A stretch of DNA of 64,000 nt, from NCBI GenBank assembly GCA_027009115.1, contig JALVDI010000386.1:6700-70699 (forward strand), given 5' to 3'. This stretch comes from Polyangiaceae bacterium (GTDB taxonomy: Bacteria > Myxococcota_A > Polyangia > Polyangiales > Houyiibacteriaceae). The notes below the pieces were generated by a model. It was not told the DNA's origin and searched no databases. It saw only the letters and a list, made by a program, of their open reading frames with translations. A program made the translations under genes and the position numbers. Positions 926 through 47,126 of this stretch are shown in pieces. Within the stretch, counting starts at the first letter, position 1; every line of letters starts with the position of its first letter.

Positions 926-945
926 GCGATAATGTCTATTATCGC
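926..945. promoter_or_regulatory. Perfect palindrome GCGATAAT-gtct-ATTATCGC upstream of the recombinase gene
   Basis: 8-bp arms at 926-933 and 938-945 with a 4-bp spacer, in the intergenic region between divergent genes. This is a candidate operator or recombination core. GCGATAAT recurs in a second palindrome at 27139-27153. Confidence 0.4.
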
Positions 946-1012: not shown

Positions 1013-1972
1013 ATGGCTAGAGGCGGTTACCGCGGCGAGGCGTTTCCATGGGGGGCGGTCAAGCCCGAGCGGCGAGCTGAGAAGGTGCGCGCGATGCTCG
1101 AGGCCGGCGACCGGGCCGGCCTGTGGGCCCTGGTCAAGCACCACCTCATGACCTGGGGGCGTGCGGGCGCGGCGACGAGCCCCCACACCCTGCGCACCTA
1201 CCGCACCGGGCTGAACAGCTTCCTCGACTACCTGGCCGAGCTCGGGCTCGAGGGGGAGCTGCTGGCCGAGGCGGTCCTCGATCCGTCGGAGGACCTGGGG
1301 GCTGAGTACCTGCGCCACCTGCAGCGTCACCACGCCCCCGCCACCGTGAACAACCGCCGGGCGGCGGCGCGGGCCTTCTACCGGGCGCTGCAATGGGCCC
1401 GGGCCACGCAGACCAACCCCTTCGACCTGGCCCCGACCGTGCGGGACCCGACGCCGCGCCACGAGAAGCGCCGCCCCTACGAGGACGACGAAATCAAGCG
1501 GTTGACCCGAGAAGCGGACCCGCACGAGCGGGTCATGGTGCTGCTCGGGGCCCAGGGCGGGCTGCGCATCTCGGAGGCGGCGCGGCTTCGCTGGGACGAC
1601 GTGGACCTCGGGGCGAAGCGGATCACGATCCGGGACGGCAAGGGAGGGAAGACGGCGAGCGTCCTCATCCCCAAGGGGCTGCGCGCCGCGCTCCGCGCCC
1701 TTCGCAAGGCCGAACCCGAGGGCGAGTACGTGCTGCCCTGGCGTACGCCTGCGAGCATCCGGCGCCGGCTCAAAGCGCTGTGCGACCGGGCCGGCGTACG
1801 CTACAAGGGCTACCACGCCCTGCGGCACTACTGCGGCACCTACATCTACCAGCAGACGGGCGACCTGAACACGGCCGCCCGCCAGCTGCGGCACTCCCAG
1901 CTGCAGACGACCGCGATCTACGCAAAGTGGGCTGAGGAGATGGCGCGCGAGCTCCTGGACGGCTGGGACTAG
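1013..1972 (+). CDS. int: Tyrosine recombinase / integrase (XerC/D-Cre-like)
   Basis: 319 aa. The N-terminal SAM-like core-binding region is followed by a catalytic domain with LLGAQGGLRISEAARLRWDD (Arg I), HALRHYCGTY (H-x-x-R) and the C-terminal TTAIYAKW tyrosine. Confidence 0.9.
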   Translation: MARGGYRGEAFPWGAVKPERRAEKVRAMLEAGDRAGLWALVKHHLMTWGRAGAATSPHTLRTYRTGLNSFLDYLAELGLEGELLAEAVLDPSEDLGAEYLRHLQRHHAPATVNNRRAAARAFYRALQWARATQTNPFDLAPTVRDPTPRHEKRRPYEDDEIKRLTREADPHERVMVLLGAQGGLRISEAARLRWDDVDLGAKRITIRDGKGGKTASVLIPKGLRAALRALRKAEPEGEYVLPWRTPASIRRRLKALCDRAGVRYKGYHALRHYCGTYIYQQTGDLNTAARQLRHSQLQTTAIYAKWAEEMARELLDGWD

Positions 1973-2305: not shown

Positions 2306-3106
2306 TCAGTTCTGCAGCTTGTGGGCGGGGAACTCGAGCCCGTACTTCTTGACCCGCGGCGGGGCCTTGGGGAAGTCGGGGCCGATCTTGCCGCCGTTGG
2401 CGTGGAGGTGGTCGCTGACCTGCTTCATGTACGCCACGCCCTCACGCTTGACGGCCTCGCGCTCGTGCGCGGGCACCAGCTTCCGCAGGTTGTCGTCCTT
2501 GTAGAAGTTGTCGTGGGCGTGGTCGGCCCAGACGTTCTGCCAGGGGTGCCGCAGCTGCACCTCGAGCCGCTGCCCCTTGTGCCCGATGCCGTTGAAGTGC
2601 ACCGAGCGGTAGCCGTCGCGCGAGCCGTCGTGCACCTCGTGCTCCAGCACCTTGAGGTGGGGGTGGGGGTTGTCCATCAGGCTCTTGAGGCGGCGGTGGG
2701 CCTCCTCGAAGTGGGCCGGGTCGTGCACGGTCACGCGCAGGCCCACGGTATCGCCCAGGCGGTTGAAGTGGCGCGGCTGCTTGCCCGGGCGCCCCATCTT
2801 CTCCGCGACCTTGTACGGCTCCTTGATGCGGCCGCCGATCTGCACGTTCAGCCCCTGCAGCACCTTTTCCAGGTGCGCCTTGGCGCGGTCGTGGGCCTCT
2901 TCGGCGATCGGATGCAGGTGCTCGGAGATGTGCTGCTGGACTTCCGGCGCGGTGTGCGGCACCCAGCGGCGCCCGCTGGGGGTCTTCACCCGCACCATCA
3001 TCCGGCCGCTGGGAAGCACGCGCATGGCGCTCGCGCCCTGGGCCTTGGCGAGGAGCGAGAGGGCCAGCTCGACGAGCGAAAAGGAAGACGCTAGGGTGCG
3101 ATCCAT
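2306..3106 (-). CDS. RelA/SpoT-domain protein (small alarmone synthetase / toxSAS-like nucleotide pyrophosphokinase)
   Basis: 266 aa. The ordered motifs RIKEPYKVAEKM, LGDTVGLRVTV, DGYRSVHFN and LEVQLRHPWQNVWADHAHDNFYK match the RSH synthetase-domain signature (RxKxxxSxxxK, DxxGxR, GYRSxH, EhQhRTxxQxxWAxxxHxxxYK). Confidence 0.7.
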   Translation of the reverse strand: MDRTLASSFSLVELALSLLAKAQGASAMRVLPSGRMMVRVKTPSGRRWVPHTAPEVQQHISEHLHPIAEEAHDRAKAHLEKVLQGLNVQIGGRIKEPYKVAEKMGRPGKQPRHFNRLGDTVGLRVTVHDPAHFEEAHRRLKSLMDNPHPHLKVLEHEVHDGSRDGYRSVHFNGIGHKGQRLEVQLRHPWQNVWADHAHDNFYKDDNLRKLVPAHEREAVKREGVAYMKQVSDHLHANGGKIGPDFPKAPPRVKKYGLEFPAHKLQN

Positions 3107-18736: not shown

Positions 18737-19010
18737 GCTGCTCCTCCTCCCGCTGCATGGCGACCCGCAGGCTGCGCAGGGCCGTCTCGGTCGCGCGCAT
18801 CTGGCCGTAGGTGTCCGCGGCCAGCTCGCGCGCCACCGTGAGGGCTGACTGCACCTCCGGGCCCCGGGTTCCTTCCGTGGCCGCATCGGCGACCCGGATC
18901 GCGTCGAGCGCGCGCTCGATCGCTTCCTTACCGCGCGTGCGCAGCTCCTCCTCGGCCCGCAGCAGCATGCGGTGCGCGTCGGTGAAGCTGGTCGGTTCGT
19001 GCTTGGTCAT
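18717..19010 (-). CDS. Hypothetical coiled-coil protein (97 aa)
   Basis: Trimmed to ATG 19008-19010 (MTKHEPTSFTDAHRMLLRAEEE...) behind an AAGGAGGG SD. The upstream part of the track ORF is an Arg/Gly-rich shadow of the overlapping HTH gene. Confidence 0.5.
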   Translation of the reverse strand: MTKHEPTSFTDAHRMLLRAEEELRTRGKEAIERALDAIRVADAATEGTRGPEVQSALTVARELAADTYGQMRATETALRSLRVAMQREEEQRDQDQD

Positions 19011-20106
19011 CCCTGCCCTCCTTTCTGTCGCTGCTCTTTCGGCGGCTCCGCCGCGTACGCCACTCCACGTAGGCCCGCCACGCCTCCGGGGAACAGTAGC
19101 GGACGGGCGTGGCCTTCGGGTCGTCGGGCTGACGCACGGGCACCGTCTTGTGCCCGTAACGGCGCAGCCAGTTGTGGGTAGCGCCCACGCTCCACCCGTT
19201 CCGCTCGGCCTCCTCCGACACGTGCACCCAGCCCTCCGGTGGGCGCTCGAGGATGCCCGCCTCCCACCGCTCACGCCACTCCACGTAAGCCTGCCAAGAC
19301 TCCGGCGGGCAGTAGCGGGAAGGAGCGACCCGCGCATCGGGCTGGCGCGCCAGCACCGTGGGGTGCCCATACCGGCGGAGCCAGTTCTGGACCGCGCCTG
19401 CGCTCCATCCCCTCCGCTCGGCCTCTTCCGACACGTGCACCCAGCCCTCCGGTGGGCGCTCGAGGATGTCCTTGTACTCGATGATCTGGGCGGCGTCCAG
19501 CGGTGCGTACCAGTTGACGCGCCGCCCGCCCGCGCGCGGATCGGGTGCCACGCGCGCCTGAATGCCCAGCGCCTTAGCGCGCGAGAGCACCGTCCGGGTG
19601 TGCAGCCCGGTGCGGCGCGCGATGTCGGCCAGCGACAGCCACCCCTCGGGGATGGAGCGCCGTCGCAGGTACGCCTGGAACAAATCGGGCTCGAAGTACA
19701 GCCGCCCCTTGTACTTCACCGCGCGCAGCTCCCCCCGGCGCGCCGCGGCGGTCAAGGTGTCCACGTGCTGCCCCGAAAGCTCCTGGGCCCGCTGGCTGGT
19801 GAGCCAGCGGGCGGGGCGCTTGGCCACGCGGGGCACGCCGTCGTTGTCCAGGTACTCCTTGGCCACTTCGGCGCGCACGTACGCGCACTTCCCGACTTTG
19901 CGGTAGTACGGGCATCGGGTGTAGTTGCGTTCCAGGCGCCACTCGCGGAACGCCGCGTGGCTGACCCCGGCTTCACGCAGCACCCATTGGACCGGTACGA
20001 AGATCCCGCTGCGGCGCCCGCACAGATCTTCCGGCGGAGCCGGGCACGGCTTCCGGCGACCATCGGACCGGCGGTCACGCATCGAAGAGCGGCTGCGAGC
20101 CGTCAC
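18928..20106 (-). CDS. Multi-HTH DNA-binding protein with tandemly duplicated excisionase/MerR-type (HTH_17-like) modules
   Basis: Two near-identical 71-aa modules are present: ILERPPEGWVHVSEEAERRGWSAGAVQNWLRRYGHPTV...YVEWRERW and ILERPPEGWVHVSEEAERNGWSVGATHNWLRRYGHKTV...YVEWRTRR. Three more diverged copies lie upstream, for example WLTSQRAQELSGQHVDTLTAAARRGELRAVKYKGRLYF. The start may instead be the Met at 20082. Confidence 0.65.
   Translation of the reverse strand: MTARSRSSMRDRRSDGRRKPCPAPPEDLCGRRSGIFVPVQWVLREAGVSHAAFREWRLERNYTRCPYYRKVGKCAYVRAEVAKEYLDNDGVPRVAKRPARWLTSQRAQELSGQHVDTLTAAARRGELRAVKYKGRLYFEPDLFQAYLRRRSIPEGWLSLADIARRTGLHTRTVLSRAKALGIQARVAPDPRAGGRRVNWYAPLDAAQIIEYKDILERPPEGWVHVSEEAERRGWSAGAVQNWLRRYGHPTVLARQPDARVAPSRYCPPESWQAYVEWRERWEAGILERPPEGWVHVSEEAERNGWSVGATHNWLRRYGHKTVPVRQPDDPKATPVRYCSPEAWRAYVEWRTRRSRRKSSDRKEGRDDQARTDQLHRRAPHAAAGRGGAAHAR
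19057..19468. repeat. Tandem direct repeat, two units of about 200 bp (period 213-216 bp), inside the multi-HTH gene
   Basis: The 37-mer cacgtgcacccagccctccggtgggcgctcgaggatg occurs at 19219-19255 and 19432-19468. acgccactccacgta occurs at 19057 and 19273. The intervening sequence is clearly homologous. Confidence 0.8.
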
Positions 20107-28115: not shown

Positions 28116-29123
28116 ATGGGCAGCCTCCACGACGGCCGAATCAAAAACTTCTGGTGGGGACCCAACGCCCTGGTAGACGACGGGCATCTCGAGCGCATGG
28201 GTCCCCACGCCGTTTCGGTGTACGTGGCGCTGCTGCGCTACTCGGACAACGACCGCCGCTCGTGGCCCAAGGTCGAAACCCTGGAGCGCCTGACCGGCAT
28301 CTCTCGCGCCCAGGTCTACCGCGCGCTCGCGCGCCTCGAAGAGCTGGGCTACGTATCCCGCGAGCGTGACGGCCGGCGCAACGTCTACCATCTGCTGCAG
28401 CTCCCCACGGCATCCCCCGCCGACCCGCCCGTGAAACAGGTCTCAGGCAGAGACGTTTCCAGCGAAAAGGTCTCAGAGGGAGACCCTTCGGGGGAAAGGG
28501 TCTCAGACAGAGACAAAAAGGGTCTCAGACAGAGACGTGTAAGGTCTCAGACAGAGACGTATGGTGACACCGAGAGCGCGCGTCCTGGACGGGAAAAACT
28601 CCCCCAAAATGCAGGCCGAAGAAAACAAATAGAAAAAGACCTAGGGAAGAAAACAACACAAGAAGAAGAAGAAGAAGAAGCGGCCGCTCACGAAAATCTC
28701 AGAAAGGAACCGCCCCCCTACGCCTCGGTGTTCGCCACCCCGGCCGCGATGAAGGACGCGGTGTTGCATGCGGCGCTGCGCGGTGCCCCCGAGCGCCGCA
28801 TCCGTATGCTGGCGGACCTCGTCGAGGCTGGGGTGTGGGAAAAGTTGCGCGCGCTCGCGCGCGAAAACCGCCGCGGCGCGCGCGCGTGGCACGACTGGCT
28901 CGATCAGCTGTCGCGGCAGCTCGAGGGCCGGCCGGACGGCCTCGAGCGGCTGCGCCAGGCTCTCGAGGCGCTTACCCCGGACATCGAACGCCCCTTTGCG
29001 TGGGTGACGCGGTTCCTGAGCACCGAGGCCCCGACGCCGGCGCCTAAGCGGGCGCCGGCGCGGAACGCAGGCGTAGGCGACGGCGTGGAAGTGGACATGC
29101 GCGGTGTGTACATGGAGGACTGA
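28116..29123 (+). CDS. Replication initiator with N-terminal winged-HTH (lambda O-like organisation)
   Basis: wHTH segment: SWPKVETLERLTGISRAQVYRALARLEELGYVSRERDGRRNVY. The gene contains the iteron array and A/T-rich tract and is followed by a DnaC-like loader. Confidence 0.7.
   Translation: MGSLHDGRIKNFWWGPNALVDDGHLERMGPHAVSVYVALLRYSDNDRRSWPKVETLERLTGISRAQVYRALARLEELGYVSRERDGRRNVYHLLQLPTASPADPPVKQVSGRDVSSEKVSEGDPSGERVSDRDKKGLRQRRVRSQTETYGDTESARPGREKLPQNAGRRKQIEKDLGKKTTQEEEEEEAAAHENLRKEPPPYASVFATPAAMKDAVLHAALRGAPERRIRMLADLVEAGVWEKLRALARENRRGARAWHDWLDQLSRQLEGRPDGLERLRQALEALTPDIERPFAWVTRFLSTEAPTPAPKRAPARNAGVGDGVEVDMRGVYMED
28439..28558 (+). repeat. Five iterons GGTCTCAGACAGAGAC (putative replication origin)
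   Basis: Copies lie at 28439-28454 (GGTCTCAGGCAGAGAC), 28469-28484 (GGTCTCAGAGGGAGAC), 28499-28514, 28521-28536 and 28543-28558 (the last three exact). Spacing is 30, 30, 22 and 22 bp. Each unit is itself a dyad, GTCTC-N5-GAGAC. Confidence 0.8.
28593..28680 (+). other. A/T- and purine-rich tract next to the iterons (candidate DNA-unwinding element), ending in a (GAA)7 run
   Basis: gggaaaaactcccccaaaatgcaggccgaagaaaacaaatagaaaaagacctagggaagaaaacaacacaagaagaagaagaagaagaag is conspicuously AT-rich in a GC-rich genome. It is still in frame within the initiator gene. Confidence 0.6.
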
Positions 29124-29124
29124 C

Positions 29125-29916
29125 ATGGGCGACGCCCCGGAGAAGGATCAGGAGAACCCCTTTCTGGCGCTGGTCGAGGAAATCCGCTCGAAGAACCCGC
29201 CGGCGGCGCGGGTCGAGTCCGACCACGAGTGCTTCGACGGGATGGTCGAGGACGACAAGGGCCGCTGGGTGCCGTGCCCGGTGTGCAAGGCGCGGCGCGA
29301 CGAAGCCATGCTGCGCATGCGCCTCCAGTCGTCGGGGATCGCGGAGCGCTACCTCGACGTGGGCTGGGACGACCTCGAGATGCTGCCGCCCTTCCCGCTG
29401 GTGCGAAGCGTGGCCGAGCGCATCGGCGACCTGATCCACGCCGGCGAGTCCGCGGTGTTTACGGGGCCGGTGGGGACGGGCAAGACCCAGGCCGGGCTGC
29501 TCCTGGTGCGGGCTGCGGTGCGCGCCGGGTTCGAGGCGCGGGTCGTCAACGTCGGCTGGCTGGGGGTTGAGGTGCGCTCCACCTGGAACGGCGGTGAGGG
29601 CATCACGGAAAACGAGGCCGTGCGCCTCATGGCTCAGCCCGACCTGCTGCTGCTCGACGACGTGGGGGCCGGCGAAACCCGCAACGCCGAGCTCGAGCGC
29701 CGCCTCCTCTACCTCGCCCTCGAGGCGCGGAACCAGAACCGGCGCCCGACGATCATCACGACCAACCTCGGGGTTGGGTCAAAATCGGCCTCGCGCGCCA
29801 CATTGGAGCAGTACCTTGGAGGGCGGATATGGGACCGCCTCAAGCCGCTCCGGGTGGTGGCCTTCAAGCACGGGAAAAACTTCAGGGAGCGGGAGATTAG
29901 CGTATGGGCAAACTGA
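29125..29916 (+). CDS. DnaC/IstB-like AAA+ helicase loader
   Basis: Trimmed to MGDAPEK (ATG 29125) behind GGAGGA. Walker A is FTGPVGTGKTQAG, Walker B is LLLLDDVGAGE, followed by RRPTIITTNL. The N-terminal Cys cluster is CFDG...CPVCKARR. Confidence 0.8.
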   Translation: MGDAPEKDQENPFLALVEEIRSKNPPAARVESDHECFDGMVEDDKGRWVPCPVCKARRDEAMLRMRLQSSGIAERYLDVGWDDLEMLPPFPLVRSVAERIGDLIHAGESAVFTGPVGTGKTQAGLLLVRAAVRAGFEARVVNVGWLGVEVRSTWNGGEGITENEAVRLMAQPDLLLLDDVGAGETRNAELERRLLYLALEARNQNRRPTIITTNLGVGSKSASRATLEQYLGGRIWDRLKPLRVVAFKHGKNFREREISVWAN

Positions 29917-31513: not shown

Positions 31514-31705
31514 ATGGCATTGACTATGAAAACACCCACTCAGCAGGAGGCCCGAAACCGGCTCATCAAGGCCACGGAGGGCGACCTGGACAGCGAAATC
31601 GCCGCGTTTTCGATCATCGCCAAAGCCAACGAAATCGGCCAGCTGCTCCAGCAGCTGGCCCCCGAGGCGCGCGAGACCGCGCGCGAGCTTCTAAGAGCCT
31701 TGTAG
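31514..31705 (+). CDS. Hypothetical small protein (63 aa), apparently leaderless
   Basis: TAAAAT (31502-31507) lies 6 nt before ATG 31514 and there is no SD. The 3' end overlaps the convergent RHH gene by 15 nt. Confidence 0.45.
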   Translation: MALTMKTPTQQEARNRLIKATEGDLDSEIAAFSIIAKANEIGQLLQQLAPEARETARELLRAL

Positions 31706-32116
31706 CGTCTTCTGGCCCTTCGGGGCCGCACGCAAGGCCCGATCCAGGGCCGTGAGGATCACGCTGTTCTGCGTGATCTTTTCTTTGCGGGACTGGTTCA
31801 GCCGCTCCACCGTGTCGTGGAGGACCCGGACCAGCTCCACGGGCAGCCGTTGGCTGCGCACCGGGTCGTACGGACGCGGGTTACGCCAGTACCGGGGCAG
31901 CGCGTCCGGGCGGCGCCGCGCCTCCCGCAGGAAGGCGGCGAGCGCGCGCTCAACGTAGCCCTGGATCGTGAGCCCTTCGGCCATGGCCGCGATCTTCAGC
32001 TCCTGGTACATGTCGTCCGGCATTTTGTAGGACACGATCCGCCGCAACTGCTGTTTCGGGCCGACCGGCTTCGCGCTGTGCTCCATCAGCCCCTCGTACT
32101 GGTGTTTGTTGGGCAT
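31691..32116 (-). CDS. Tandem ribbon-helix-helix protein, ParG-like centromere-binding candidate
   Basis: AGGAGGAG SD. There are two RHH-like segments: RIVSYKMPDDMYQELKIAAMAEGLTIQGYVERALAAFL and QRLPVELVRVLHDTVERLNQSRKEKITQNSVILTALDRAL. It lies immediately downstream of parA. Confidence 0.55.
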   Translation of the reverse strand: MPNKHQYEGLMEHSAKPVGPKQQLRRIVSYKMPDDMYQELKIAAMAEGLTIQGYVERALAAFLREARRRPDALPRYWRNPRPYDPVRSQRLPVELVRVLHDTVERLNQSRKEKITQNSVILTALDRALRAAPKGQKTLQGS

Positions 32117-32127
32117 GGCTCCTCCTG

Positions 32128-32925
32128 TTAGCGGCTGGGCACCAGCTCGGCCCGTTCCGCGACCCAGTCCCCCAGCGCCATGTAGTCAATCGCGCCCGGG
32201 GACCGGGGCTTGTACTCGAAGATGGTCAGCCCGCGCTCCGGCGCTTCGGCGAGGTGGACGTTGCGCCGGATGTGACCGGCGTAGGTGGGCCCGTAGGCCT
32301 CCTGCAGGTCGGGCACGAGGTTGCGGGACAGACGTTCGCGTCGGTCGATCATCGTGGCCAGCACGCCCATCAGCGCCGGCGCGTAACCGAGGCGGTCGCG
32401 CATGGCGCGCAGGCGCGTTCGCAGCCCCTCCACCCCGGCCCGGGTGGCCGCACCGGGGGCCACGGGCACGATGACGGCGTCGGCCGCGTAGAGGGCGAGC
32501 AGGCTGGCCAGGTTGACGGTGGGGCCCACGTCTATGATCACGAGCTGGTAGCGGTCGCTGACCTCCTTAAGCCGCTCGGCCAGGATCATGTGCCGGTCTT
32601 CGCGGCCGGCGATCTCGAGCTCGGCTTGGGCGATGCGGGGGTTGTTGGGGATGAGGTCGAGCCCGTCGCGCACGTTCAGGGTGATGAGCTCGTCGGCGGG
32701 GCGGTAGGTCGGGTCGAGCGGGTCCGAAAACACCAGCATCTCGTACATCCCCGCGCGGTCCTCCCCCTCCGTGGTGAACCCCAGGAACATGCCCGCCTGC
32801 CCCTGCGAGTCCATGTCCACGAGCAGCACCTTGCCTACGCGGTCGGCCAGGTAGGCCGCAAGGTTGACCGCGGTGGTGGTCTTCCCCACCCCGCCCTTTT
32901 CAGCAGCGATAGCCAGGACCATCAT
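32128..32925 (-). CDS. parA: ParA/Soj-family partition ATPase
   Basis: Deviant Walker A VLAIAAEKGGVGKTTTAVNLAAYLA, plus VLLVDMDSQG and YQLVIIDVGP. 265 aa. Confidence 0.9.
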   Translation of the reverse strand: MMVLAIAAEKGGVGKTTTAVNLAAYLADRVGKVLLVDMDSQGQAGMFLGFTTEGEDRAGMYEMLVFSDPLDPTYRPADELITLNVRDGLDLIPNNPRIAQAELEIAGREDRHMILAERLKEVSDRYQLVIIDVGPTVNLASLLALYAADAVIVPVAPGAATRAGVEGLRTRLRAMRDRLGYAPALMGVLATMIDRRERLSRNLVPDLQEAYGPTYAGHIRRNVHLAEAPERGLTIFEYKPRSPGAIDYMALGDWVAERAELVPSR

Positions 32926-33563
32926 GACACCCGCTTAGGCCGCACCCACGTCACCACACCAATCACCTTGTCGCTCGGCTTGGGCGGCGGGGCCTCTTCG
33001 TCGTCGTACACGTAGCCGCCCTTGGTGGCCCACACGGCCTCGAGGCCGCTACCCAGCCGCTCGAGCACCACGAGGTCGCCCTCTTCGATCCGCTCGGTCG
33101 CCCGCACCCCCACCGGCTCGTTGAGCGGCAGACAGGCGATCCTGCCCGACGTGGGAACGAAGAGCAGGTCGCAGGGCAGCGCCGGCTCCTCGCGCCGCGC
33201 GGCGGGGCCCTGGGCGGACTCCCCCTCGAGGTAGACGGGCACCGTCACGGCGACCTTGGCCGCCGGTTCGCCGTTGGCGGGCGCCACCACGGCGAGCCCG
33301 GTCTCCTCCACGAACCCCTGGTAGTCCCCGTCCCACAGGAGGGCGACCAGGGTACGCAGCCGGGCCGGCGAGAGGGTGCGCACGGCTACGTCGGGCTGCG
33401 TGATCAGCGTATGCAGCGTCGGGCGCGACACGCGCTCGTAGATACCGGGTTCGCGCTCGGCCAGGTCCTGGCTAAGCGCGTCCACGTCCCGCAGGCTCAG
33501 CTTGCGGGCCTTCATCCGCTGGTGTATCGCGTCCGAAAGAGACTTGGTTTTGACTGCTCCCAC
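32922..33563 (-). CDS. cI-like repressor candidate (N-terminal HTH, C-terminal beta-rich domain)
   Basis: GTG start at 33563. The N-terminus SLSDAIHQRMKARKLSLRDVDALSQ is XRE-type HTH-like. The gene is divergent from a cro-like gene and has an ATGA overlap with parA. The C-terminus (EEGDLVVLERL...VIGVVTWVRPK) is reminiscent of an S24/LexA-like fold, but I could not locate a Ser/Lys dyad. Confidence 0.55.
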   Translation of the reverse strand: MGAVKTKSLSDAIHQRMKARKLSLRDVDALSQDLAEREPGIYERVSRPTLHTLITQPDVAVRTLSPARLRTLVALLWDGDYQGFVEETGLAVVAPANGEPAAKVAVTVPVYLEGESAQGPAARREEPALPCDLLFVPTSGRIACLPLNEPVGVRATERIEEGDLVVLERLGSGLEAVWATKGGYVYDDEEAPPPKPSDKVIGVVTWVRPKRVS

Positions 33564-33613: not shown

Positions 33614-33642
33614 ATTGTAGTCCAGAATATTGGATAACGCAA
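33614..33642 (-). promoter_or_regulatory. Promoter of the cI-like/parA/RHH operon
   Basis: The minus strand reads TTGCGT (33637-33642), 17 nt, TACAAT (33614-33619). Confidence 0.55.
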
Positions 33643-33644
33643 AT

Positions 33645-33697
33645 GGACAGACAGCACGGCTGGCCAGCTTGCCCCCTTGTCCGTCTGTCTGTAAAAT
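33645..33697 (+). promoter_or_regulatory. cro-side promoter flanked by inverted ACAGACAG / CTGTCTGT repeats
   Basis: TTGCCC (33669-33674), 17 nt, TAAAAT (33692-33697), with ATG 33705 lying 7 nt after the -10 (leaderless). GGACAGACAG at 33645-33654 and CTGTCTGT at 33685-33692 bracket the -35 box. Confidence 0.55.
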
Positions 33698-33704
33698 GAG
33701 ACAC

Positions 33705-33908
33705 ATGGAGACGATCCGCCTCAGCGAAATCCACACGCGCCTGAGCGAGCTGTCCGGCGAGCAGATCCTCGAGCTCGCTCGCCGAACCGGCATCGGCCGC
33801 TCGACCCTGTACCAGTACCGCGCCAGCCCGGAGGCGCTGAAGCGGGCTCGAGGCTCCACCCTGCTGGCCATCCAGAGGGCCCTGGATGAGGTGCGCGATG
33901 CTGCCTAG
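33705..33908 (+). CDS. Cro-like small HTH protein (67 aa)
   Basis: Trimmed to METIRLSEIHTRLSELSGEQILELARRTGIGRSTLYQYR (HTH). It is divergent from the cI-like gene. Confidence 0.55.
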   Translation: METIRLSEIHTRLSELSGEQILELARRTGIGRSTLYQYRASPEALKRARGSTLLAIQRALDEVRDAA

Positions 33909-35332: not shown

Positions 35333-35587
35333 ATGAAGACACCCGAAGCAGTTCTCCAGCACGCACCCGCCGCCGCTCACGGCGCCGCGTCGGCGGCCGT
35401 GACGCTCTTGCCGGCTGACGGCTGGCGCGCCGTCTATGAAGGCGGGGACGCGCGACCGTTGGTAGCTTGGCGCTTCGTCGGAGACCGCGGCGAGGGCATC
35501 GTGCTCAACGAAGCGGGGGAGACGGTAGCGGCCCCGATGCTCCCGGGGTTCAAACGCTACCTGTACGTCCAGCGGAGGAGCGCATGA
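35333..35587 (+). CDS. Hypothetical protein (84 aa)
   Basis: GAGGAGG SD. ATGA overlap with dnaN. Confidence 0.5.
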   Translation: MKTPEAVLQHAPAAAHGAASAAVTLLPADGWRAVYEGGDARPLVAWRFVGDRGEGIVLNEAGETVAAPMLPGFKRYLYVQRRSA

Positions 35588-36654
35588 AGTTCGCCCAGGC
35601 CGTCTCACTCCTGGCGGGCCTCGTGCCTACCCGCGCCAGCAACCCGGCGCTGGGCCACATCCACCTCGATACCAAAGACGGGGTGCTCGTCGGCCGCGCG
35701 TCCAACGGGGAAGTGGACCTCGAAATCATGACGACGGAGGCGGCCCTCGAGCTGGATCCGGGCGGGGTGCTGGTGCCCCCGGCGGGGTTTGCGCGGTTTG
35801 TCGCTAGCCTGAAAGAACCTGCGCTGGGATACGACCCCGAGACGCGCGAGCTGGTCGTCAGCGGCGGCGCAGCCTCGGCCCGTTTCCGCACCGGCCGCGC
35901 CGACGACTTCCCCGAGATGCGCGCCTTTGGGGGCGAGGTTCCGCGCGTGCGCATCCCTGCCGGCGAGCTTCGCCGGGCGCTGTCCGTGCGCTTCGCAAGC
36001 TCGGCCGAAGACTACCGCGCGATCTTCCGCGGGGTGCAGTTCGAGTTCCGCGAGAAAGGCTTCCGCACCGCGGCCTCGGACGGGTTCCGCCTCGCGGTCT
36101 ACGACTTCCCCGAAAGCGAGGGCGAGGTCGAACGCCTGTTCGTCATCGCCCGAAAGTCGCTCGACGTGCTGAGCAAGCTCCTTCCCGGGGACGAGTCGCC
36201 CGTAGAGGTGGCCGTCCAAGGCCCGCAGGTGCAGTTCGTGTGGGAAGGCGTGCGCCTGGTCCTCACGGCCATGGAGGGGCAGTTTCCCGACTACGAGCGG
36301 GTCGTGCCCAAGGAGATCACCCACACCATCGAAGCGCCGCGTGACGACCTCCTGACCGCGCTCAAGCGGCTGGCGCCGCTCACGGACCCGAACACGGCCC
36401 GGGTGGACGTGCGGTTCGAGGACGGGGCCGCCACACTCACCGCCGAGGGCGACTACGGTAAGGCCAACGACCGGGTGGAGCTCCTGGCGGTCCAGGGCGA
36501 ACCCGTCCTGCAGTCGTACAACCTGCATTACCTGCAGGAGGCGCTGCAGCACGTGGACACCGATCGTGCCACCCTCGAGCTCAGCGGTCCCGTGACCCCT
36601 GCGGTCATCCGCGGAGAAAGCACCTGGAGCATCGTGGTACCGCTGCGAACCTAG
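35584..36654 (+). CDS. dnaN: DNA polymerase III beta sliding clamp homolog
   Basis: Trimmed to MKFAQAVSLLAGLVPTRASNPALGHIHLDTKDGVLVGRASNGEVDLE. The 356-aa length and the internal ...FRTAASDGFRLAV... and ...FPDYERVVP... motifs are typical of DnaN. Confidence 0.8.
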   Translation: MKFAQAVSLLAGLVPTRASNPALGHIHLDTKDGVLVGRASNGEVDLEIMTTEAALELDPGGVLVPPAGFARFVASLKEPALGYDPETRELVVSGGAASARFRTGRADDFPEMRAFGGEVPRVRIPAGELRRALSVRFASSAEDYRAIFRGVQFEFREKGFRTAASDGFRLAVYDFPESEGEVERLFVIARKSLDVLSKLLPGDESPVEVAVQGPQVQFVWEGVRLVLTAMEGQFPDYERVVPKEITHTIEAPRDDLLTALKRLAPLTDPNTARVDVRFEDGAATLTAEGDYGKANDRVELLAVQGEPVLQSYNLHYLQEALQHVDTDRATLELSGPVTPAVIRGESTWSIVVPLRT

Positions 36655-45897: not shown

Positions 45898-46629
45898 CTA
45901 GGCGCTGGGGCGGTCGGGGTCCTCCCACCACTTGCGCCAGTAGCTGATGCCGAAGTCGCGCTCGAGCTCGTAGCGCCGGCCGTGCACGGTGCCGCGGCCC
46001 ACGGCGATCGTGAGCTTGCGGCTCAGCACGTCGTCGCGCCAGCGGGGGTTGGCGCTGTCGGCCACCACCTGGGCCAGCAGCTTGAGGCGCTGCCACTCCA
46101 TGGGGTAGCGCGTCCCCGCCCCGAGGCGGCGCCGGTAGCGGCGGATGTGGTCGCGGCGCGGCGCGCCGTTCTGCACGGCGATGTCCACCCCGAGGGCGTA
46201 GGCGCGCTCGGTCGTGAACCCCAGGGCCTCCACGAGCCTCCGGCCGCGGTCCAGGTACGGCTGGGCGGCCTCGCGGAACGCCTGCTGGGTGCCGGGCAGC
46301 TCCTCGAGGCGGTGGAAGGCGTTGCGCCACTCCCACGTCGGCCGGCCGCGGCGGTCCAGGATACGCGCCCGGGCGAAATCCACGAGCGCCGCGTTGCCGC
46401 GCCGGGCGGCCTCGACGAACTCCTCGCCCATGATGCGGGCGGCCTGCTCGGGCTCGAGCTCGACGATGCGCGCCAGCACCGGGCCCAGCGTCCCCTGCCC
46501 GAGGTTCCATTGCAGCGGCCCCCAGGAGAGCACCTGGCCGTCGAAGTCGCCGGCCAGGTGCCCCCCCTCGAACGCGTGCACCATGCGGAGCACGCGGGTC
46601 TGGAGGGTGGGGTGGGGTTTGCGGTTCAT
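45898..46629 (-). CDS. Putative endolysin (lysozyme-like)
   Basis: AFEGGHLAGDFDGQVLSWG has Glu, Asp at +9 and Ser/Thr near +14, close to T4-lysozyme E11/D20/T26 spacing. The gene sits between two holin-like genes. Confidence 0.45.
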   Translation of the reverse strand: MNRKPHPTLQTRVLRMVHAFEGGHLAGDFDGQVLSWGPLQWNLGQGTLGPVLARIVELEPEQAARIMGEEFVEAARRGNAALVDFARARILDRRGRPTWEWRNAFHRLEELPGTQQAFREAAQPYLDRGRRLVEALGFTTERAYALGVDIAVQNGAPRRDHIRRYRRRLGAGTRYPMEWQRLKLLAQVVADSANPRWRDDVLSRKLTIAVGRGTVHGRRYELERDFGISYWRKWWEDPDRPSA

Positions 46630-46634
46630 GGACG

Positions 46635-47126
46635 TTAGAGCATGCCGATGACGCCGTAGTTGCCGCCGCCGGCAACGATCGGACCGGGCATTTCGCTCGG
46701 ATCGGCGGGCTCGAGCTGCAGGGTGAAGGCGATGTCGCCGATGGACGTGTCGGCCGTCGCGGGGGCGGTGATGACGAGGGTGTCGCCGGGGGCGAGGTAC
46801 ACGTCCCCCATGGGGAAGTCGAACGCGCCGTCCGACTGCCCGGCGAGGAGGGCCGCCGCGATCGAGCCGCTGCCGCCCGAGATGTCGGCTACCCAGTCGG
46901 CCGCCGGGGGCAGGTCGGCGTAGAGCCGGTGGTTGCCGTTCGCGGGGATCTTGACGTGCTCGGCCGCCACGTAGATGAACAGGACGGCGTCGGCGGCGGG
47001 GGTGCCGGGTACGAAGACGCGAAGCTCGCTGGGGCCGCTGCCTAGGTCGGCGAGCTCCGACGCCTGCTCGAGCTGCTTGAGAAAGCGGGTGTTGGTACCG
47101 GGTAGGTGTCTGCGCTCCTTTGCCAT
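46635..47126 (-). CDS. Hypothetical protein sharing a C-terminal-type module with tail fibre 47640..48509
   Basis: GDVYLAPGDTLVITAP resembles GMVYLAPGDRLRITYA in the fibre C-terminus. Confidence 0.5.
   Translation of the reverse strand: MAKERRHLPGTNTRFLKQLEQASELADLGSGPSELRVFVPGTPAADAVLFIYVAAEHVKIPANGNHRLYADLPPAADWVADISGGSGSIAAALLAGQSDGAFDFPMGDVYLAPGDTLVITAPATADTSIGDIAFTLQLEPADPSEMPGPIVAGGGNYGVIGML

Follow-up and report, generated by a model that had tools for sequence, protein, structure and literature searches.

Introduction

Within a single phage lineage a partition cassette can stand in for an integration cassette, as in the cluster A mycobacteriophages, which carry at a collinear position either integration genes or a parABS cassette with parS repeats, the parABS members being extrachromosomal prophages (PMC7157519). 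Here we examine an apparent case of the same exchange: a leftward three-gene operon, encoding a cI-like repressor, a ParA ATPase and a candidate ribbon-helix-helix (RHH) protein, at positions 31691-33563 of a 64,000-nucleotide stretch of DNA (the window), which comprises bases 6700-70699 of C386, a 79,030-bp contig from a metagenome bin labelled Polyangiaceae bacterium (JALVDI010000386.1). We read it as the probable lysogeny-maintenance operon of a plasmid prophage (phage-plasmid), a Lalka-related myovirus of about 79.1 kb. The cluster A mycobacteriophages are the closest precedent for the swap; yet their ParB is not an RHH protein and their cassette lies apart from the repressor gene, whereas C386 pairs ParA with an RHH protein and has both genes within the repressor operon, the parA start overlapping the repressor stop.

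Phage P1 resembles the C386 element as a myovirus with its own replicon, partition genes, a tyrosine recombinase and DarB/Ulx-type genes. Its ParA, however, is of type Ia with an N-terminal helix-turn-helix (HTH), it has a large ParB and a parS next to repA, its c1 repressor belongs to a separate immunity region, and the C386 cassette bears no detectable sequence relationship to its own. The type Ib systems ParF/ParG (TP228), delta/omega (pSM19035) and par2 (pB171) employ an RHH protein with a flexible N-terminal tail; in such systems this protein binds repeats upstream of the operon, which serve as both operator and centromere. Here too a small deviant-Walker-A ParA is followed by a small RHH protein, with ParG among its weak PDB matches, but an additional cI-like gene heads the C386 operon and overlaps parA, and the RHH protein appears to have two RHH-like segments per chain.

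In gene content the nearest described phages are those of Thermus, Lalka8, Lalka27a and Lalka27b (PQ109075-PQ109077), whose switch is lambda-like: the gene for a LexA-like regulator shares a transcript with the integrase gene, a tRNA-Ala attP comes next, and in the opposite direction another regulator gene leads into the replication genes (bioRxiv 10.1101/2024.08.14.607894; 10.64898/2026.04.20.719267). A separate XerD-like recombinase was proposed to act like Cre, which P1 uses for cyclisation and dimer resolution alongside packaged anti-restriction proteins of the DarB/Ulx type, and for the integrase-less Lalka27b a P1-like plasmid state was only speculated upon (10.1101/2024.08.14.607894; 10.64898/2026.04.20.719267). 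The isolated phages were described as lytic on laboratory hosts, and the integrating ones also assemble as circles, via terminal redundancy (10.1101/2024.08.14.607894; 10.64898/2026.04.20.719267).

Results

The Repressor Operon

The unit that a first-pass annotation of the window had delineated, with a cI-like HTH protein, ParA and an RHH protein in one leftward series, is present, and its three genes share the high third-position G+C of real genes in this DNA:

32922..33563, minus strand: repressor, first gene of the operon, 213 aa, whose HTH is N-terminal and whose C-terminal domain is S24-like (cI/LexA fold)
32128..32925, minus strand: ParA ATPase, type Ib-style, 265 aa, with the deviant Walker A motif EKGGVGKT from residue 9
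31691..32116, minus strand: candidate RHH protein, 141 aa, presumed centromere-binding, ParA-stimulating partner
31637..31660, minus strand: terminator-like hairpin from a consensus scan, 10-bp stem with 8 G-C pairs, about 30 nt past the RHH stop

The ATGA overlap reported between the first two genes is real: the repressor TGA and the parA ATG share nucleotides within GTGTCATGATGG, which reads GTG TCA TGA in one frame and ATG ATG GTC in the other. The RHH gene starts 11 nt past the parA TAA and is preceded, at 5 nt from its ATG, by an AGGAGG box; the hairpin, also scored as a perfect 11-nt inverted repeat, probably ends the operon. A helical open reading frame (ORF) of 63 aa (31514-31705, plus strand), with gene-like codon bias, converges on the RHH gene and overlaps its last 15 nt; it has no tblastn match in G001, an 80,753-bp sister genome from IMG/VR.

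Taken alone, the repressor matches no Pfam, PHROG or NCBIfam model, and pattern scans of genome and viral contigs recovered no close relatives, the alignment being too divergent for pattern scanning. An exhaustive HMMER search returned 33 matches, about 29 of them full-length relatives; among 21 aligned family members, six match Peptidase_S24 (best E 3.8e-6) and three HTH_31. Single-sequence structure prediction was useless (predicted local distance difference test, pLDDT, 48), and an AlphaFold model built from the family alignment reached a mean pLDDT of 90.2. The closest PDB folds to this model are lambda cI and LexA (probability 1.0), and its N-terminal domain matches in fold the HTH domains of TP901-1 CI and DdrO. 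Given the domain matches of the family and the fold matches to lambda cI and LexA, the label "cI-like" of the first-pass annotation is correct. Direct similarity to the LexA-like protein of Lalka8 (gp82) is not significant, and homology between the two rests on fold and transitive Pfam matches. When both are aligned, the GDSM motif of Lalka8 faces SGRI in the C386 repressor (family consensus S-x-R-M) and its T-L-K motif faces A-V-W (family consensus L-A-W), which puts Arg at the catalytic Ser position and Trp, also the family consensus, at the Lys position; nor does the alignment reveal an Ala-Gly cleavage site in the linker. With the Ser-Lys dyad lost and no Ala-Gly site, the repressor is therefore predicted not to cleave itself: it would be a non-cleaving relative of the cI/LexA (S24) family, retaining the HTH and the S24 fold, rather than a canonical member.

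Sequence matches identify the middle protein unambiguously as ParA (AAA_31, E 2.9e-37; phrog_164 "ParA-like partition protein", E 7.9e-53), and it also matches NCBIfam ParA_partition, at an E of 1e-24 that lies below the cut-off of the model. It has no N-terminal HTH or DNA-binding domain. No ParA match in the phage collection exceeds 37% identity or comes from P1; the top annotated one, an Acinetobacter "phage" ParA, was discarded as uninformative, being part of a chromosomal gidB-soj-parB locus.

The third protein gives weak model matches over residues ~18-66 (Pfam RHH_10, E 0.014; PHROG Arc-like, E 1.8e-4), and a family profile of this segment matches the solved RHH proteins HP0222 (E 8e-4), CopG and ParG. 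In RHH register, a second segment (~89-128) matches the first (hhalign probability 63%, E 7e-5); together with an N-terminal Y-x-G-L motif it is retained in all seven RHH homologues, two of which are without segment 1. Of the two RHH-like segments that had been proposed, the first is thus backed by weak but recurring matches, the second only suggested. The pairing of a small HTH-less ParA, within the ~200-270 aa usual for the type, with a partner directly downstream, whose RHH matches are weak but consistent, is the arrangement of type Ib systems.

Compared with G001, the ratio of nonsynonymous to synonymous substitution rates (dN/dS) is 0.16 for the repressor, 0.086 for ParA (91% identical) and 0.17 for the RHH protein, against 0.105 for TerL and 0.114 for portal; with dS near saturation these values are rough, although their direction is clear. 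The cassette is under purifying selection.

The Control Region

Upstream, a relatively G+C-poor region of ~140 bp is common to the repressor operon and a divergent small HTH gene:

33614..33642, minus strand: candidate repressor-operon promoter, TTGCGT-17-TACAAT, from sequence reading
33669..33706, plus strand: Cro-side promoter from a promoter scan, TTGCCC-17-TAAAAT at 33669-33697
33705..33908, plus strand: divergent Cro-like small HTH gene, ~67 aa, heading the rightward early operon toward the clamp gene

The repressor-side promoter, which matches the -35 consensus at three of six positions and was missed by the consensus scan, has its spacer occupied by a dyad, O2 (TATCCAATATTCTGGACT, 33619-33636); O2-like dyads sit at the same position in G001, in the Deinococcus cellulosilyticus element described below and in L022, which like L023 is a metagenomic relative. 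The Cro-side promoter has its -10 box covered by a second dyad, O1, of 18 bp (TGTCT-CATTTTAC-AGACA, 33686-33703), which (ACAG)n repeats adjoin; the O1 consensus, TGTCY-nATTTTAC-RGACA, occupies the equivalent position in C386, G001, D. cellulosilyticus, L022 and L023. A longer ORF at 33630-33908 matches HTH_7 (E 2.1e-5) and HTH_26 (E 5.8e-4), and the ATG at 33705 is most likely the start of the Cro-like gene, the transcript then probably being leaderless. With predicted dyad operators at divergent promoters of the cI/Cro type, the region has the anatomy of a bistable cI/Cro switch, in which the lysogenic promoter would drive parA and the RHH gene. Another inverted repeat of the region, ACAGACAGAC ... 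GTCTGTCTGT, is absent from G001 and was set aside.

Elsewhere in the window, at 765-800, an operator-like dyad (GTCC-ATTATACC-GGAC) is centred on a minus-strand TATAAT box, immediately 5' of what looks like a short leftward ORF (start codon ~752, outside the gene calls) facing the recombinase gene. At this position G001 has TGTCT-AATATATC-AGACA, and the dyad may, from its sequence, be a further target of the same repressor.

Recurrence in Deinococcota and Other Relatives

Repressor homologues from 68% down to ~29% identity (tblastn) were examined for their context. In all ten of the ParA-carrying relatives the repressor is followed by a KGGxGKT ParA, at spacings that range from an overlap of up to 8 nt (in three relatives the 4-nt ATGA) to a gap of 52 nt. 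Wherever there is contig beyond ParA, a protein of 101-138 aa is encoded next; on the other side of the repressor stands a small HTH gene in divergent orientation, and the long contigs (~80-91 kb) provide the same kind of phage context. The arrangement is far beyond chance: ten other elements, with repressors of 29-68% identity, share it.

Among 364 Deinococcota species genomes there are six strong repressor matches, three of which, each with the repressor-ParA cassette, lie on contigs that are entirely phage and measure 83, 88 and 91 kb. The 91-kb contig is identical to one of the D. cellulosilyticus type strain, DSM 18568, with proteins deposited from two assemblies. These assemblies differ by exactly 127 bp per contig end, and the one extra segment that was read is absent from the shorter contig. 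The stretch unmatched to C386 proteins encodes a single-stranded DNA-binding protein (SSB), a Crp-like regulator and type I restriction-modification, with no host housekeeping genes; the restriction-modification system is complete (hsdS, hsdM, hsdR; L058:2928-8763) and rides as cargo. The fourth match, on a 703-kb contig (G373), has a longer repressor variant, followed ~4 kb downstream by an integrase, then tRNA-Arg and host genes (ribosomal protein S20); this locus is the integrating alternative and shows that two maintenance modes exist within the repressor family. The fifth lies on a circular element of 53,690 bp with a 128-bp end overlap (G102:C21, L068-L070), where the repressor precedes an RHH-like gene of 116 aa and ParA is missing.

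The repressor family is absent from all 40 genomes examined as relatives of the bin. Within the bin, C386 lies at a tetranucleotide distance of 0.0185 from the centroid, against a mean of 0.0078 (SD 0.0031), some 3.4 SD away, and was probably mis-binned by its G+C content. A scan of named genomes with TerL found only a Thermus bin (54%) and distant Binatia, and was uninformative on the host. Since the closest relatives are Thermus phages and Deinococcota-borne elements, the relatives of the bin are without the family and the composition is an outlier, the host of C386 is probably a member of Deinococcota.

Genome Closure and Comparison with Lalka Phages

C386 is the longest of 702 contigs in its bin, and library scans place phage functions along its whole length. 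A gene for an N6/N4 DNA methylase is cut in two by the contig ends (L001:2-868; last ~170 nt of L002): the N-terminal 288 residues run off the left end, the C-terminal motif VLDPFAGSGT... begins at the right end, and the two ends map 56 bp apart within the intact gene of G001, ~19 codons missing. G001 is itself circular, its ends overlapping by 127 bp; CheckV rates it 100% complete, and it aligns collinearly with C386 throughout. From the split methylase gene and the 56-bp spacing on G001 it follows that C386 is a complete, circularly closing genome of ~79.1 kb without host DNA; the split gene is direct evidence of a closed circle or a permuted genome. No host genes were found on C386, nor DNA shared between it and other contigs of the bin. 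Of the checks that the first-pass annotation had called for, circular closure is obtained in both C386 and G001, and the search for att junctions yielded no host flank, tRNA, Lalka-type integrase or attP on C386.

Across C386 lies a full virion and packaging set (portal, a MuF-like protein, TerL, a capsid homologue, sheath, baseplate J, holin and an M23 peptidase), as expected of phage-plasmids of the P1/N15/SSU5 kind. TerL is 72%, portal 73%, the major capsid protein 69% and sheath 66% identical to the Lalka proteins, and the shared frame, at 24-73% identity, comprises portal, capsid, sheath, baseplate, DarB-like and Ulx-like proteins, a giant helicase, the clamp and the XerD-like recombinase. 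Both groups also have a divergent switch of a Cro-like against a cI/LexA-like gene, with the lysogeny genes behind the repressor.

It is in the contents of this last slot that the two part. Lalka8 and Lalka27a have an integrase and the tRNA-Ala attP there, whereas C386 has ParA-RHH and no such integrase: the sole match to the Lalka-type integrase in C386 is the Xer-like gene, at 27% identity, and Lalka8 gp82 and gp84 have no matches in C386, the C386 repressor being without detectable sequence similarity to gp82. Likewise no attP-like tRNA fragment was found on C386, a 28-nt match to the Lalka8 tRNA-Ala attP falling in the tRNA-like end of a tmRNA gene. As the Lalka switch runs from repressor to integrase to attP, ParA-RHH sits in the integrase slot. 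C386 thus has the shared virion, DarB/Ulx and XerD-like set of the Lalka phages without their LexA-integrase-attP module, and, like phage-plasmids, it has no dedicated integration module. Replication differs as well, with an O-like protein, DnaB and primase in Lalka, and an O-like initiator with internal iterons plus an IstB-like loader in C386. The first-pass annotation had considered the coupling of immunity to partition in one transcript unusual. In this group, maintenance genes co-transcribed with the repressor are the rule; what does differ is that they serve partition instead of integration.

Replication, Recombination and the Search for a Centromere

The element's own initiator, loader and clamp, as well as the Xer/Cre-like recombinase, all noticed at first pass, are present:

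28116..29123, plus strand: O-like winged-helix replication initiator (phrog_270, E 3.3e-19, O-like families)
29104..29916, plus strand: IstB/DnaC-like helicase loader (PF01695, E 1.6e-10)
35467..36654, plus strand: DNA polymerase III beta clamp, with all three beta-clamp Pfam domains, in the rightward operon
1013..1972, plus strand: XerC/XerD-like tyrosine recombinase (Phage_integrase, E 3.6e-23, and a SAM-like N domain)
926..945, no strand: inverted repeat GCGATAAT-GTCT-ATTATCGC, 8-4-8, 67 nt upstream of the recombinase start

The clamp is 37% identical to the Lalka8 processivity factor. Inside the initiator gene, five GGTCTCAGACAGAGAC iterons (28433-28558) are followed by an A/T-rich tract that ends in (GAA)7 (~28590-28690), so that ParA and the RHH protein are accompanied by an initiator with iterons and a loader, the combination of partition and autonomous replication found in phage-plasmids.

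The Xer-like gene is the sole recombinase found on the element. It scores below cut-off against all XerA, XerC and XerD models and is the most conserved gene measured (95% identical to G001, dN/dS 0.045). Its Lalka8 counterpart, the "recombinase" gp59 (54.5% identical), coexists with a separate integrase; because the orthologue is thus a second recombinase beside the Lalka integrase, the C386 protein fits, by analogy, a candidate Cre-like enzyme for circularisation or dimer resolution. The upstream repeat at 926-945 is not the perfect palindrome first described but an 8-4-8 inverted repeat; G001 keeps it with 7-bp arms, and its role may be that of a recombination core site or of an operator.

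Near the cassette, and downstream of the operon in both C386 and G001, the search gave no repeat array of the parH or omega kind. The iterons were rejected as a centromere, as their place within the initiator gene beside an A/T-rich tract is the layout of an origin; a CAGACAGA core common to the iterons and the operator region has four matches, a number reached in 4 of 100 shuffles and not significant alone. The sole repeats that stand out are the (ACAG)n/GGACA repeats beside O1, enriched in G001 (p ~0.01). Given that a type Ib centromere commonly doubles as the upstream operator, the upstream control region would be the best centromere candidate.

Other Features

No tRNA genes occur in the window, where the first-pass annotation had noticed no tRNA-like att target near the recombinase; the contig nevertheless holds, outside the window, a full tmRNA gene (C386:74821-75097, minus strand; L002:4222-4498). 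G001 has one at L016:4663-4958, both being full-length matches to the whole Rfam model RF00023 (134-136 bits), with ARAGORN tag peptides GNTQPQLRAA in C386 and GNPMLKAA in G001. Four tRNA genes of G001 (Met, Ser, Ala, Ser; 46305-46732, L018) are not in the C386 element. A stand-alone RelA/SpoT-domain gene (window 2306-3106, minus strand; PF04607, E 8e-15) stands at the end of the giant-protein operon, is kept in G001 (87%) and is absent from Lalka8. At 19057-19468 of the window a 213-nt unit is tandemly duplicated (1.9 copies, 80% identical) within an HTH_17 gene (18928-20106).

Discussion

In this study, we find partition genes in the repressor operon of a Lalka-like myovirus, and we favour, with a probability of roughly 0.7, a lysogeny-maintenance function in a plasmid prophage. 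Under this model a repressor with the cI/LexA fold, made from a weak promoter facing the Cro-like gene, would silence the lytic genes by binding O1, over the -10 box of the Cro-side early promoter, and O2, in the spacer of its own promoter. ParA, translationally coupled to it through the ATGA, would make up a type Ib partition system with the RHH protein and so pass the circular prophage to both daughter cells at division, while the phage's own initiator, iteron origin, loader and clamp would replicate the prophage; the Xer-like recombinase would circularise incoming DNA, resolve dimers, or both. ParA-RHH would thereby replace the integrase and attP that integrating relatives have behind the repressor. 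Comparison with known systems supports a cassette that works like a type Ib partition system within the lysogenic operon of a cI/Cro switch. Extrachromosomal persistence, which the first-pass annotation had put forward as a possibility, gains from the closure of the genome and from the lack of host flanks and of a Lalka-type integrase.

Several points weigh against this model. A circular assembly is also expected of a terminally redundant virion genome, as in the integrating Lalka phages, and the Xer-like recombinase could in principle integrate the element. The bin is metagenomic and C386 a compositional outlier in it. The RHH assignment, made on weak hidden Markov model scores, is the weakest of the three, and the search for a centromere, which covered the stretch past the RHH gene and the control regions of seven elements, gave no convincing repeat array. 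Co-transcription of the three genes would follow from how closely they are set, two of them overlapping, and from a single promoter-like site and a single terminator-like hairpin.

The alternative that survives best, though we consider it unlikely, is an integrating temperate phage, inserted by the Xer-like recombinase, or by the host Xer enzymes at a dif-like site such as the 926-945 repeat, with ParA-RHH doing another job, such as positioning excised or replicating DNA, as in some ParA-bearing integrative elements. A tyrosine recombinase with a conserved upstream inverted repeat is indeed present, a ParA gene alone is no proof of plasmid maintenance, and circular assemblies are obtained from Lalka integrators too. 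However, the orthologous recombinase coexists with a dedicated integrase in Lalka8 and Lalka27a, and so is not their integrase; no host flank is seen in C386, G001 or the D. cellulosilyticus contig, and no other contig of the bin shares C386 DNA. To this are added the lack of a tRNA or an attP-like tRNA fragment, the sole match to the Lalka attP lying within the phage's own tmRNA gene.

Quite improbable, in our view, is a lytic or carrier state (pseudolysogeny), in which the contigs would represent virion or replicating DNA and ParA-RHH would organise the DNA during infection. C386, G001 and several relatives do come from metagenomes or bins, and the isolated Lalka phages were described as lytic on laboratory hosts; but a complete cI/Cro-type switch with conserved operators is present, and the par genes stand behind the repressor rather than an early lytic promoter. 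Moreover, two assemblies of an axenic type strain each have a 91-kb contig made up wholly of a relative, and all the Deinococcota matches are in cellular genome assemblies.

We attach slightly less weight still to the notion that the 213-aa protein is a third component or regulator of a three-gene par module, with immunity set elsewhere. It would accord with the three genes occurring together in every ParA-carrying relative examined, and with degenerate protease residues that make classical SOS induction unlikely. Yet the gene lies at a divergent switch, facing the Cro-like head of the early operon, as in Lalka and lambda, and a dyad operator covers the -10 box of the early promoter; furthermore, members of the repressor family are found without ParA: in G373 one neighbours an integrase, and in the circular 53.7-kb element of G102 an RHH-like gene is the sole partner. 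A linear plasmid prophage with hairpin telomeres, as in N15, is barely credible: assemblies cannot separate a circle from mixed permuted linear forms, but no protelomerase-like protein turned up among the proteins scanned, and a Xer/Cre-like recombinase is present instead, as in P1.

Beyond the plasmid-prophage model itself lies a bolder extension, which we regard as rather improbable: the immunity operators may be the centromere, the RHH protein and the repressor both loading on the O1/O2-(ACAG)n region as one nucleoprotein assembly. If so, the copy number or segregation status of the prophage would feed directly into the lysogeny decision, which would explain both the lost self-cleavage residues and the translational coupling of parA.

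The phage-plasmid class and the integration/partition swaps of mycobacteriophages are already known, and the lifestyle itself is not new. What is new is a lineage of ~80-91-kb Lalka-like myoviruses, apparently of Deinococcota, with partition genes in the repressor operon, stop/start-coupled to a repressor that is predicted not to cleave itself; a full-text literature search for "phage-plasmid" with "Deinococcus" returned incidental mentions only. The lineage provides natural relatives for the P1-like state that the Lalka authors speculated upon for their integrase-less phage, and a culturable strain, D. cellulosilyticus DSM 18568, is a place to test the plasmid state. It may also offer a compact stability cassette for thermophile and Deinococcus vectors, and, for the biology of these phages, a tractable case for the co-regulation of immunity and segregation.

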